From Octopus sinensis (Eukaryota), in contig NW_021836133.1 in assembly GCF_006345805.1 (NCBI RefSeq), forward strand, positions 62,001 to 126,000: a stretch of 64,000 nucleotides of DNA, written 5' to 3'. Positions 35,915-39,749 of the stretch are shown piece after piece (the stretch's first letter is position 1; every line of letters starts with the position of its first letter). The translations under genes were made by a program, and so were the position numbers. The notes under the pieces are model-generated. The model was not told the DNA's origin and ran no database searches. It saw nothing but the letters and a program-made list of their open reading frames with translations.

Positions 35915-36140
35915 AACATTTTTAAAGGAGTGGAAGAGCTCAAAATACGTACTTCTTTCTGACGCATACGAGTTTGTCCCCCTTGCTTTTGAGACCACTG
36001 GCGTGCTAAGTAAAGAAGCGGATTGCGTATGCTCGGCGTTAAAATTGCCTTGAAGACGCATGACCGAAGGAGGCGAGCTGCCTCTTCCAATCTCTATTCT
36101 ACGCGGAACTGCCTCTCGATCCGCAGTGCGTCTTTGCGGA
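35915..36140 (+). mobile_element. CRE retrotransposon RLE/C-terminal fragment
   Basis: SKY.LLSDAYEFVPLAFETTGV..ISILRG. Confidence 0.7.
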
Positions 36141-36179
36141 CTGACCGGCAGGTCGCATATAGCTCTAAAAAGGCTAAAC

Positions 36180-36255
36180 TCGTTTATTTTTCAGCAAGAT
36201 AATGACCCTTGGCATATTTCAGAAATAATAATTAAATATATAAAATCCAATAGAC
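36180..36255 (+). mobile_element. Tc1 transposase micro-fragment
   Basis: FIFQQDNDPWH (Tc1 second-Asp motif). Confidence 0.55.
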
Positions 36256-36589
36256 CAGTGTTTCTTACGTCGTCCCCCGAAACATGTTTAGCTCAATTAA
36301 TTTTTATAACTGAAAAAATTATTTATTCATTTGAATATTTAATTAATTTTATTCCACTTTTTTGTTATTTGATTGTAATGGTAATCGCAAATGGATTGAT
36401 TCTTATGTCTAATATGGATTTACCAAATATACTGAATCTGAAAACGTCGATAAATCGCAGTGCATGATATGCGACGTCATAATGGGAAACAACTTTTTAA
36501 AAACATAAGGAAAAAAATCACCCACAGAATGTTGACACTGTCGAAAGTCTTATTGCAAAGAGAACTTGGAGGTATATACTCCAAAAGGT

Positions 36590-36710
36590 TGAAAGATTAT
36601 TCGTCGATTGTCAAAAATTTTATGGAAGGAAATGAAAATCCAATTCTTGTTGGAGACTTAAATGCGAAGCATACTGCATATGGGTGCGTGAAGTCAAATC
36701 AGGATCTGTT
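36590..36710 (+). mobile_element. LINE apurinic endonuclease fragment
   Basis: ILVGDLNAKHTAYG...SN. Confidence 0.6.
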
Positions 36711-36769
36711 CAATTATTCTTGGATTCCGAATAAAATATTGATGTTCCTGTGCCGGCGTTAGCACCAGG

Positions 36770-37257
36770 ATGCCAAGGAATATCAATCGAGCTGTATCCA
36801 GGAATAGTGATACTTCCAGACGGCATGCCAGACGCTATCAATCAGCAACATTAATTGGAATCATTTCAATTTTATATGTCTATGAAATTGGCAAATACTC
36901 AAGAATTGAAAATACTAATCCAGACGAGATCAATTATTTGGATAAAAGAATGAGAAACATTATTCGAAGTTATCTGGAGGACTATGGAAAAAGAGGTTTC
37001 TCTTCTCGTACAAAAATCGATTGATAAATGAAGAACAATCCAAACTACTTCGTGAAAAAAGGAACTTGGAAAGTAAACTAAAGCGGTGTTGGGACCCGCA
37101 AGACGCTATCTTCCTCAAACAAAGAATAAAATCGATTAAAAACTTATCAGAGAAAAAAGGGGAAAAAAAACAAGCTATTGTCAATCAATGTTTAAATCAA
37201 AAAAATAGAAACAATTTATGTTCTACATGGATTGATGTTAAAAAAGCCTTTGATTAG
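36770..37257 (+). mobile_element. R2/NeSL-type reverse transcriptase fragment
   Basis: QSATLIGIISILYVYE region, then AIVNQCL..LCSTWIDVKKAFD. Confidence 0.6.
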
Positions 37258-37269
37258 GTCGAACATTTC

Positions 37270-37680
37270 CCCCTCTTGATAATCCTTCAGATCCATTTTT
37301 GTTGGATTCTGAATCTGTTCTTGAATTGATTGACGATTATCATGCTTCTTTCCGCATTCCTATTCGAATCCAAAAATTTGCCCGTATTTCGGCGGCCCAA
37401 AACTTATCCTCTCTAATCGATTCTGTCATTTCCGACCCATCCATTTCTAATTGGAATTGTTTATTCCTTTTTCCAACCTTTGCGTTGGGCTCCTCTGCCC
37501 GTCTCCCCGGTGATTCCTTTGTTTTTATTTTTAAAAGAATATGAGTCAGTTTATGAATGACTCTCGTTCCATCTCTCTCATATAAAATCTACTTCTAAAA
37601 CCCTCGTTGAAGAATGCTTACGGTCTCGGATTAATTCCTGCTTAATGTCGAACGATGTCAGCGCGGCTATCTACTCAGCA
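37270..37680 (+). mobile_element. CRE retrotransposon N-terminal ORF fragment
   Basis: ESVLELIDDYHASFRIPIRIQKFARISAAQNLSSLI..NWNCLF aligns with ESVLRLARDYRASYRIPIRIPRSARFSAAKALSALI..NWNRLF of the full element. Confidence 0.8.
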
Positions 37681-37689
37681 AAAAAGCTG

Positions 37690-38015
37690 AAAATTTTTGT
37701 GTAATTTCTGGAAAGCTGTATCTTTCAAGTAAAGATAAAAGTCCGAAGTTTGTAATTACTTTGGATAATGAAGAGGAAATGGCTTTCCATTTTAAGAATA
37801 TTCACAATATTACTCACTGCGGGTAGAATGTTTTAGAACAGCACTGTCATGACAATTTCTTTACAATTAAAAGAAATGTTGTTAGAAAAGTCGTTTCGGA
37901 ATGTAAAATTTGTTTGTTTTTCAACTCCTCTGAAGGAATATGATGAGGAAAACCATATAACTGGAAGTATTCCTAATGAAAGATTTCAGGTGGATTTAAT
38001 TGACCTACAAATGTA
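37690..38015 (+). mobile_element. Ginger/Gypsy-type integrase fragment (zinc-binding + rve start)
   Basis: IHNITHCG..IKRNVVRKVVSECKIC..PNERFQVDLID. Confidence 0.6.
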
Positions 38016-38109
38016 ATTCGTTTGTTTATTATAGGTTTAATCGAGTGATTCTGAAAGGCGGCGTGGTTAATGAAGATACATTACGTAATTCATTTAATTT
38101 TATAAGAGT

Positions 38110-38390
38110 CGATAGTGGAAATCGACGAGTGTAAATTTTTTTAACAGAAAGTACCATCGAGGTCATTGGCGATCAGGCCATTGGGTATTGGGTGGAATAG
38201 ACAGGGAAACTAGAAAGTGCTTTTTTGAAGAAGTTGTAGGTTCTTTTTTCCATTTATCCTTTAGACAGAACAGCGGAAACACTTAATGAAGTTATCGTTC
38301 GACGCGTACTTCCCAACACCCATATCATTACTGATGGTTGGGCAGCCTATAATGGGATTGCGCAGGGAGGAGGGATTTATTCACGAAATA
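38110..38390 (+). mobile_element. Merlin (IS1595/ISXO2-like) transposase fragment containing a 25-nt intron
   Basis: VEIDECKF.NRKYHRG..WVLGGIDRETRKCF..V|DRTAETL..IITDGWAAY; GT..AG at 38240-38264. Confidence 0.85.
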
Positions 38391-38824
38391 TGCAATCTGG
38401 TCATTAATTCCAGCAAGTCTGAGTTTGTCAATCTCTCTATTGGAACAAGTTGACTCATTCCCCTATCCGACTGGGCCTTGTCACACTGTTCAACAGATCT
38501 AATGCACTTGCAGAGATAATTTGCACTCTATGTGAAAAATGGAAGACTAGTCATATATTTTTGCCTCGGTAGCCAAGAATTGATCGATGAATCAATACAG
38601 ATTCGATCGATATTTCGACATTACGATTCAAATCTCGTGCCAATTGTTTATCAAGTTGCTCTTGGTCTGGTAACATCAAGCATCTTATCTGACTCCAAAC
38701 TACCAAAAATTGTCAATCTCTCTTGGAACAACATGTTATAATATAGGCAACCCATGCAAAATTAGTATACAATTGGATGATCCATCGATTTAACATCAAT
38801 ACTATGATTTTTTATTAAATTGTT

Positions 38825-39637
38825 TTGTTACGGGTGGTCAACAACCAAAGTGGTTCCCGGTTAAAAAGGCCAAAAAACACTGCAATAGAGCATGTTTGGC
38901 ATTATTCCTTAAATGCTCGGGTTCGCATGTTTTGCAGCGAGCGTTTAAGTTCGTTACATAATTCGAATGAGACAATCAAGCGACTTTTCCTTAGAGATTT
39001 CACTCCGACTAGGCCACTAGTTATTCCAAACTCACATGCCCATCCCGTGTGTTCTTCGTTACGCTCGAGGTTCAGGTCCGATTTAAGATCCTTCATTTCT
39101 CGCAACAACCTGACGCTACATTGCTTTGAGGGAGCCCGCTCTGATGGACATTCTAGCACTAGGGGATGGCATGTGGCTCCTGATGTAAGCATGCATGTGG
39201 TGGATGATCCAATTTCTAGTGATCTTATAGAACTTGTTGACGTAGATTACTACGTTGACCTTCCAAATTTGTGTTGCAACTTAAGGCCAGTTTGTTTATA
39301 CACGGCCAACCCTAAGCTAACCGGGGGAGTTCTTCCTGAAGGTGAGGGTTATTATTTCTTTGATGAGTCAAGCAACCTTGTTACAAAAATCAATGGCTGC
39401 TCGACTTATCGTCATAGGATTTATGACTTTTCACAGGACTACTTTGTTGTTAAGAACACGAAAGGTTGGTATAACTGGGTTCTCTCCTGGTTCGTTAACA
39501 TTTATACGGTTGTTCGTATTGATGTGGTCAATAACGATGATTACCATCAAGTAGTGCTTCTTACGCCGATTAGGCCACTTTATGCAGACTTTCTCTCGCC
39601 AATCGACAAACCAACTTTAAAGCCCAAAACTTGGTAA
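38825..39637 (+). other. Endogenous viral element: nodavirus protein A N-terminal methyltransferase/guanylyltransferase (capping) domain, truncated before the RdRp
   Basis: 270 uninterrupted codons (first ATG 38927): HAHPVCSSLR (H..R), DVDYY, RPVCLYTANPK, Y.H.IYDF, matching the nodaviral capping-domain order recalled from Flock House virus protein A. No introns. Confidence 0.88.
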
Positions 39638-39749
39638 ATCCAGCCAAAAATTGAAAGTTTCCAAAAACCGCATTGCGGTTGGAAACTACTTCAAGAATGA
39701 AAAGTTAACAAAGCCATCTTAATAAAATAAAACAATTGGCATTCAAAAA

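Follow-up and report, generated by a model that had tools for sequence, protein, structure and literature searches.

The window, a stretch of 64,000 nucleotides of contig NW_021836133.1 in the Octopus sinensis assembly GCF_006345805.1 (positions 62,001 to 126,000; C12604:62001-126000 in our own contig labels), holds at 35926-39698 a dense array of transposon and RNA-virus fragments that lie almost entirely on the plus strand. Mobile-element and virus pieces cover 3720 of its 3773 bases and represent 11 nested insertions, all in plus orientation (nine transposon insertions, a nodavirus gene piece and a likely rhabdovirus-like gene piece), and to their right, beyond an intact CRE element, lies a dispersed non-coding repeat that we call R. 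From sequence comparisons we judge it reasonably probable that the array is the dense core of a zone of ~8 kb (35400-43800), one of many small loci resembling flamenco of Drosophila, and that this zone would be transcribed leftward from R into an antisense precursor of PIWI-interacting RNAs (piRNAs). The polarity would then likely be driven by R and not by the CRE. An earlier note on this DNA had proposed a uni-strand "trap" at 35915..39694 with read-through from the full CRE as its driver. The trap reading is strengthened by ten extra pieces, a second virus piece, PIWI genes and a polarity tied to R, all described below, but the CRE loses its role, as it is a young insertion absent from six equally polarised copies of the locus.

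R was found by comparing the flanks of same-strand runs, which share this one repeat at their downstream end. It contains two inverted TAATTAAT-type blocks, its copies diverge by 9-21%, and neither an Rfam match nor an open reading frame (ORF) was found in it; a bacterial promoter scan and an RNA fold (z -2.1) were made and not used. For a test of polarity, R copies were picked by DNA similarity alone (160 candidates, 40 scored, 23 new copies), the prediction was fixed in writing beforehand, and 16 of the 23 new copies were examined. Left of R, 47 of 51 pieces pointed toward it (plus strand), against 12 of 24 on the right; with duplicated loci removed, the left-hand count was 31/34 and the difference remained (Fisher p 7e-4; p 5e-4 against a background of 0.65). 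Four settings of library and threshold gave 25/27 to 29/31 on the left versus 5/14 to 9/19 on the right, the left-side majority per locus being plus at nine loci, tied at one and minus at none. A mirror-image minus zone to the right of R was considered and discarded, the right side being mixed. At the discovery loci the bias holds to ~8 kb (70/81 within 8 kb, 3/7 beyond), and polarised zones of 5-8.5 kb lie beside R on C8591, C12459, C10703, C9729, C11710 and C9497. The window's own R recurs on C133 and upstream on C12600, where its left neighbours are entirely different and 4/4 pieces within 5 kb are on the plus strand in each case. R marks one end of the polarised pieces and may be the discrete promoter that a uni-strand cluster would have there. 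A profile of R gave 26 matches in 1.44 Mb, none in reversed decoys and two in 600 kb of control DNA, from which a few hundred copies may roughly be expected in such a genome. Of 184 open frames to the right of R, 150 (from 12 of 13 loci) were scanned with Pfam, and a host gene came up at a single locus.

Dense pieces lying nearly all on one strand, as in uni-strand piRNA clusters, were found both in the window (11/12 insertions plus when the intact CRE on the minus strand is counted with the 11 of the array; binomial p 0.006) and among the pieces present only in other copies of the locus (10/10 plus). The probability of ~0.004 given for such uniformity in the earlier note is too low, since the appropriate null is not 0.5: in control DNA (230 pieces in four stretches that were picked blind and total 600 kb), 67 of the 102 neighbour pairs from different families with less than 600 nt between them lie on the same strand (66%), and at this background 11 in a row has a probability of ~0.013, as has 10/10. 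No tight run in the control exceeds 5 (runs of 4-5 occur). The note's statement that transposon fragments elsewhere in the window are mixed is borne out (13/25 plus). Other long same-strand runs were seen on C8591, C9076, C12459, C9729, C11710 and C10703.

Annotation relied on a repeat library built from the same genome (298 multi-copy ORFs of mobile-element proteins, one tblastn widening), its strand set by Pfam or by position within the element, which was then used on all DNA examined. Its family labels are coarse, so that LINE (long interspersed nuclear element), RTE, R2/NeSL and CRE may be swapped, and the tests rest on strand; "Ginger-like" stands for an rve/H2C2 integrase match without long terminal repeat features, with no tree behind the label. 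Pfam on short frames overlooks most array pieces, and these were confirmed on the plus strand via DNA or protein matches to fuller copies elsewhere in the genome (Table 1). In counting insertions, nested halves were taken once, as were the CRE N-terminal piece and the 47-nt CRE remnant, whose common family is not shown.

The base layer of the array consists of the CRE endonuclease, Tc1 and CRE reverse transcriptase pieces. A hAT element entered the Tc1 piece, and the LINE, R2/NeSL, CRE, Ginger-like, Merlin and nucleoprotein (N) pieces are nested inside the hAT. Beyond the hAT shell the Tc1 piece resumes at 38883-38899, its right part matching a Tc1 copy in other copies of the locus, and the Tc1 reading frame continues across the hAT target duplication. 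The Merlin piece has retained both of its very short introns (window 38085-38270; in the parent, at L064:4600-4950, they measure 26 and 25 nt) and was therefore copied from DNA or unspliced RNA, so that not all pieces arrived via mRNA. Template jumping on mRNA as a single origin of the pieces was ruled out by these introns and by the hAT and Ginger elements having their own termini, and the hAT shell as a mobile pack was ruled out by the flanks common to all copies.

The one-strand array of the earlier note is accordingly real and richer than described, with one LINE sub-piece inverted. The CRE endonuclease, Tc1, APE, CRE N-terminal, Ginger-like, Merlin, nodavirus and CRE reverse transcriptase assignments on the plus strand were all matched to fuller copies. 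What had been called a NeSL-type reverse transcriptase at 36770 is the inverted piece of the neighbouring LINE, the true R2/NeSL-type sequence lying further right (37156-37265). The caveat that some pieces may not be independent was well placed, as pieces are nested and the LINE parts belong to one element. The hAT shell (36256-38882) and the 47-nt CRE remnant at 38396 had been missed.

Table 1. Features of the array and its right flank (positions in the window)
Feature	Positions	Strand	Evidence or remark
CRE endonuclease (RLE) piece	35926..36167	+	sense; 84% DNA identity to a CRE copy on C10199
Tc1 transposase DDE piece, left part	36159..36255	+	tblastx E 9e-5 to Tc1 copies
hAT shell	36256..38882	+	terminal inverted repeats; Tc1 piece duplicated at the target over 8 nt (7/8 match)
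hAT coding remnants	36280-36566 and 38723-38801	+	within the shell 36256-38882
LINE ORF2 APE endonuclease piece	36551..36705	+	94-100% to full LINE copies; Pfam Exo_endo_phos_2 E 0.005
Inverted LINE piece, 117 nt	36705..36821	-	same LINE as 36551-36705 and 36841-37155
LINE ORF2 piece	36841..37155	+	same element as 36551-36705; 95-97% to LINE copies
R2/NeSL-type reverse transcriptase piece	37156..37265	+	70-80% DNA identity to R2/NeSL-type copies, sense
CRE N-terminal piece	37268..37668	+	84% to the C9497 copy; 64% amino acid identity to the window's CRE
Ginger-like integrase piece	37668..38040	+	89-96% to five dispersed copies; rve/H2C2 match
Merlin transposase piece	38062..38384	+	91-95% to copies; Pfam E 1e-4
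CRE reverse transcriptase remnant, 47 nt	38396..38445	+	~240 nt in the C12461 copy
Likely rhabdovirus-type (mononegaviral) nucleoprotein piece	38444..38705	+	flanked by direct repeats of ~23 nt; empty site in C12461
Nodavirus protein A methyltransferase piece	38900..39635	+	245 codons, no stop; in the window's copy only
CRE reverse transcriptase piece	39631..39698	+	second copy at 43520-43598
Intact young CRE	39699..42951	-	poly(A), 6-nt target duplication; missing from other locus copies
Element R	43807..44133	+ (naming convention)	~330-bp, 19% GC non-coding dispersed repeat

The array region is also present in a ~74-kb tandem duplicate and on C6410, C8136, C1651, C12600 and C12461, and in part on C7177 and C133. 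These copies share both flanks and differ by 3-9%; some may be haplotypes. The tandem duplication joins window 1-64000 to C12604:136186 onward, with an identity of 99% near the start and of 90-95% around the array. Comparison of the copies gives the array a history. C12461 has an empty site for the N piece, and the nodavirus piece is missing from all six other copies; it represents a gain, because the diverged C12461 also has the empty state. The intact CRE, 99.5-99.8% like other CRE copies, occurs in the window only. The ten plus-strand pieces known only from other copies are C12461's own (two Ginger-like, one CRE and two hAT), a second Ginger-like piece common to four copies, two Ginger-like elements of C12600 (the end of one of them survives in the window), one LINE piece found in C6410/C12604b and a weak Ginger-like match in C12604b; one 160-nt repeat in C12461, to which no orientation could be assigned, was left out of the strand count. 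Two of these copy-specific pieces, a hAT with 100% and a Ginger-like element with 97% identity to copies dispersed in the genome, are accordingly recent, independent arrivals. The empty sites for the N piece, the nodavirus piece, the young hAT and the young Ginger show stepwise, lineage-specific gains, as in a piRNA cluster that takes up cargo. A 168-nt part of the Merlin piece stands in tandem two to four times in other copies (L018:2005-2630, 7388-8180; L011). Between copies, some array pieces (35926-37155) are 97-98% identical as against 92-94% for the cathepsin gene (32300-33500), and the Merlin and CRE N-terminal pieces, at 93-96%, show no excess over that gene; mosaic exchange between copies appears likely.

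The nodavirus origin of 38900-39635 is certain from its homology to the methyltransferase of protein A (Pfam E 3.5e-24; PDB 8fm9 E 2e-6), which is carried, intronless, in host DNA, as in an endogenous viral element (EVE). Relatives lie at 6 other places or duplicated pairs in the genome; those on C8999, C10696, C12459, C11710/C8311 and C10817/C6256 are 70-96% identical in DNA to the window's piece, and one other nodavirus piece is broken by the same LINE family that left the array's LINE pieces. The insertion took the place of 19 nt; its right joint shows a microhomology of 4 nt, and there is no target duplication. At 38444-38705 the plus frame is 79% identical to an intronless 286-aa ORF on C8896 and the minus frame matches copies of this locus only, which disposes of the suggestion in the earlier note that 38400-38740 may be a minus-strand gene remnant. 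The family of intronless N-like ORFs is found at ~16 places outside the locus, some of them duplicates (L181:4723-5580, L212-L220, L221-L233). Eight of 13 scanned ORFs match Rhabdo_ncap of Pfam, all at profile positions 172-346 and below the cut-off (E 7.5e-4 to 0.15), and a profile of the family matched four PDB sequences only, all nucleocapsid proteins (E 0.3), which we take to be N of vesicular stomatitis virus. Two structure predictions of the family (predicted local distance difference test, pLDDT, 39-40) and a viral fold search were uninformative, and protein database searches with the nodavirus piece and the N family gave no match, which is weak evidence. The piece is likely a fragment of a mononegaviral (rhabdovirus-type) N gene. 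On C6088 a long N-like ORF is followed on the same strand by a second ORF of 274 aa, as in the gene order of negative-strand viruses; no polymerase gene was seen near the C6088 N-like ORFs.

Virus-derived anchors lie in tight same-strand runs of at least 6 in 5 of 20 cases, versus 0 of 230 control pieces (p 0.006 at a background of 0.65, 0.04 at 0.72). Near-whole long N genes stand mostly in mixed-strand surroundings and short N pieces in runs, a post hoc observation. The virus pieces would have entered as complementary DNA patches at DNA breaks, a likely route because their joints show microhomology or a short duplication and no poly(A).

In the reading we favour, transposon and RNA-virus pieces would insert successively and be kept almost only if their coding strand points toward R. 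This candidate promoter would fire leftward, the antisense RNA across the zone would be cut into piRNAs, deletions would trim each piece to 50-700 nt, and the young CRE on the opposite strand would still await purging. The polarity would require a filter that acts on pieces already inserted, because DNA transposons, LINEs and virus copies (at least 8 families, two virus groups) arrive by unrelated routes and share no strand preference, yet are 91-96% one-sided. The known example of such a filter is the selection that favours antisense cargo within the precursor of a uni-strand piRNA cluster (PMC10643416, PMC7161354). Such a filter in turn requires leftward transcription from R. The base skew of R weakly fits this direction, its minus strand being T-rich in 12 of 12 copies, like the sense-strand flanks of known ORFs (downstream in 17 of 20 cases, upstream in 10 of 18). 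More tentatively, and with rather less confidence, we suggest that this tiny-intron animal may hold its memory of transposons and RNA viruses in a few hundred mini-clusters of 5-8 kb instead of one giant flamenco, each switched on by a copy of one dispersed 330-bp promoter element, so that R, by landing or duplicating, would turn one side of its new site into an antisense trap.

Alternatively, R might start or end an ordinary long non-coding transcript, with strand filtering because inserts disturb it through splice or poly(A) signals and with no small RNAs involved. This requires transcription only, and the 66% background of co-orientation would suggest a general strand filter; AATAAA occurs ~6 times per R copy on the plus strand versus once on the minus strand, which allows the opposite reading, in which R is the end of a rightward transcript. 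We nevertheless think it unlikely: the zones hold foreign pieces only, so that nothing else in them would need protection, the array has 8 AATAAA on its minus and 2 on its plus strand, and a leftward transcript has thus not been cleared of such signals, virus pieces are enriched, and the plus strand of R is A-rich, unlike sense-strand flanks. That the array is a chance result, noticed post hoc where transposons are dense and neighbours mildly biased, draws on the same background and on the control runs of 4-5, but is largely refuted by the 10/10 extra pieces and by the one-sided R test, and we consider it highly improbable.

Two further explanations, both of which we consider very improbable, give R a different nature. 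It could be one end of a Helitron- or Helentron-like mobile element that collects fragments in a single orientation as cargo and carries them to new places; as in Helitrons with captured fragments, a fragment mosaic lies beside a shared end (PMC3288121), R is dispersed (the 160 candidates of the first look), its orientation is fixed relative to its neighbours, and the window's R ends near CTAG. CTAG stands there in 2 of 12 aligned copies, though, with no short GC-rich palindrome before it, and R shows none of the conserved CTRR 3' end, hairpin or palindrome and A/T target of Helitrons (features as given in PMC3288121); the cargo differs wholly between R copies, whose nearest neighbours come from six families, and the pieces came in where they now lie, with termini and target duplications of their own. 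Locus copies share both flanks. A shade less credible still is R as a replication origin or chromosomal landmark that biases the orientation of insertion with no later selection. The slight minus lean to the right of R (34-41% plus by bases) is what a bidirectional fork would give, but the right side has no significant bias by count whereas the left is strongly one-sided, and the bias is common to DNA transposons, LINEs of several clades and virus pieces, which integrate via different enzymes.

Several observations speak against a piRNA precursor read from R. Outside R zones co-orientation is still 61/93, and another bias therefore exists. The 117-nt inverted LINE piece, the sole antisense piece in the array, is inverted in every copy that holds it, and the intact CRE, on the "wrong" strand, lies close to R on its left side, a place in which sense insertions are rare according to PMC10643416. 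Thirteen of the 16 test loci covered 1.5 kb per side and three ~5 kb. Left sides are mixed at the R copies C8702:231586, C10703:24497 and C6088, and no R was detected at the polarised runs C9076:189360-194635, C1995 (within ~5 kb) and C8702:318306-320328, of which those on C9076 and C8702 may have another landmark. The R core shows no significant block conservation (p 0.08; significant only with flanks included), tiny-intron motifs are not enriched in it, and the link of virus pieces to R (7/22 vs 9/230) was counted in loci where R was first noticed. Matches to Maelstrom and to the PLD family (Zucchini/PLD6) lie on chromosome-scale contigs only, in a search that is weak for tiny-intron genes, and RNA-dependent RNA polymerase (RdRP) had no match anywhere, in a family search equally weak for such genes and silent on controls too.

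The earlier note had proposed a test for Piwi, Ago and RdRP genes. PIWI-clade genes lie on the compact contigs C9497, C8702 and C12468, the same kind of contig as that of the array; for the exons on C9497 and C8702, PIWI chains rank higher than Argonautes, and C12468 holds two more similar copies. A PIWI-like locus on C7758 (46% GC) may belong to a third organism. The window is AT-rich DNA with closely packed genes, whose introns measure 25-30 nt (Merlin gene, cathepsin gene), and in the 2.7-Gb assembly chromosome-scale contigs with long introns coexist with small gene-dense contigs with 25-30-nt introns. From these two kinds of contig the assembly probably mixes two organisms, and the innexin and LIM-homeobox genes on the compact contigs mark their owner as an invertebrate. 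Animal introns below 30 nt are so far described for myxobolid myxozoans and one dicyemid only (PMC13644364), and the dicyemid genome has 67.5 Mb, 36.7% GC and 49% repeats (PMC6736024); the likeness of the compact contigs to such tiny-intron genomes is a resemblance only.

Some features of the window stand apart from these questions. Unlike other CRE copies, the intact CRE has at 39699-39830 ~45 additional bases ahead of its poly(A), and 56 nt of filler separate the poly(A) from the target duplication. Just right of R, 44350-44420 is a short plus-strand copy of the Sen54 tRNA-splicing gene at 51297, part of which is also present on C8591; the latter may represent an old copy of the locus in which all cargo is different. 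At 53877-55441 lies a Tc1-type element with long inverted ends built of 21-nt tandem repeats, of which C12600 has a 98% copy.

In architecture the array looks like flamenco and the EVE cluster of Aedes aegypti, and what would be new is that the loci are small, multiple, open to all transposon classes and marked by a shared dispersed landmark. The flamenco-like Aedes cluster likewise has transposon and non-retroviral virus pieces adjoining on one coding strand in an intergenic region, and for it one antisense transcript and phased piRNAs have been demonstrated (PMC7161354). It is a single, gypsy-rich locus of 143 kb (PMC7161354), whereas the present zones are many, measure 5-8.5 kb, are made of DNA transposons and non-LTR elements, and have a dispersed flanking element in common. 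Drosophila flamenco and flam-like loci share with the present ones a strong strand bias and a fast turnover of content between related copies (PMC10643416); as described there, they measure 227-1085 kb, their bias comes from gypsy only and a discrete promoter, not a repeated element, stands at one end, whereas here all classes are biased, R is a dispersed candidate promoter and a sense-strand intact element lies near it. The loci described here are 20-100 times smaller than the >100 kb of fly and mosquito, and are therefore not the same kind of single master locus, although they may work alike. Core piRNA clusters of mosquitoes are traps for antisense virus pieces, as proposed here, but are driven by readthrough from upstream host genes (bioRxiv 10.1101/2022.08.22.504762), where our loci have R in common. 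In arthropods, rhabdovirus-type EVEs are among the commonest and are enriched in piRNA clusters (bioRxiv 10.1101/396382); a rhabdovirus-type piece is likely here too, in a host that is a compact tiny-intron invertebrate and not an arthropod. The literature searched, with subscription papers mostly outside its scope, held, in its listings and the openings of abstracts, no report on tiny-intron animals that dealt with piRNA clusters or with virus-derived elements, and none on a dispersed element common to small uni-strand clusters.

What gives rise to a piRNA cluster, and what licenses it, is still an open question. If the proposed reading is true, one repeated element would predict where one-strand traps form, and on which side, which would make the birth of clusters directly testable, and a virus-derived small-RNA memory would extend from arthropods to a highly reduced invertebrate. 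The several copies of the locus offer a rare stepwise view of a trap gaining and trimming pieces, and the locus itself records two groups of RNA viruses that infected this lineage, the second of them likely, from the N piece.

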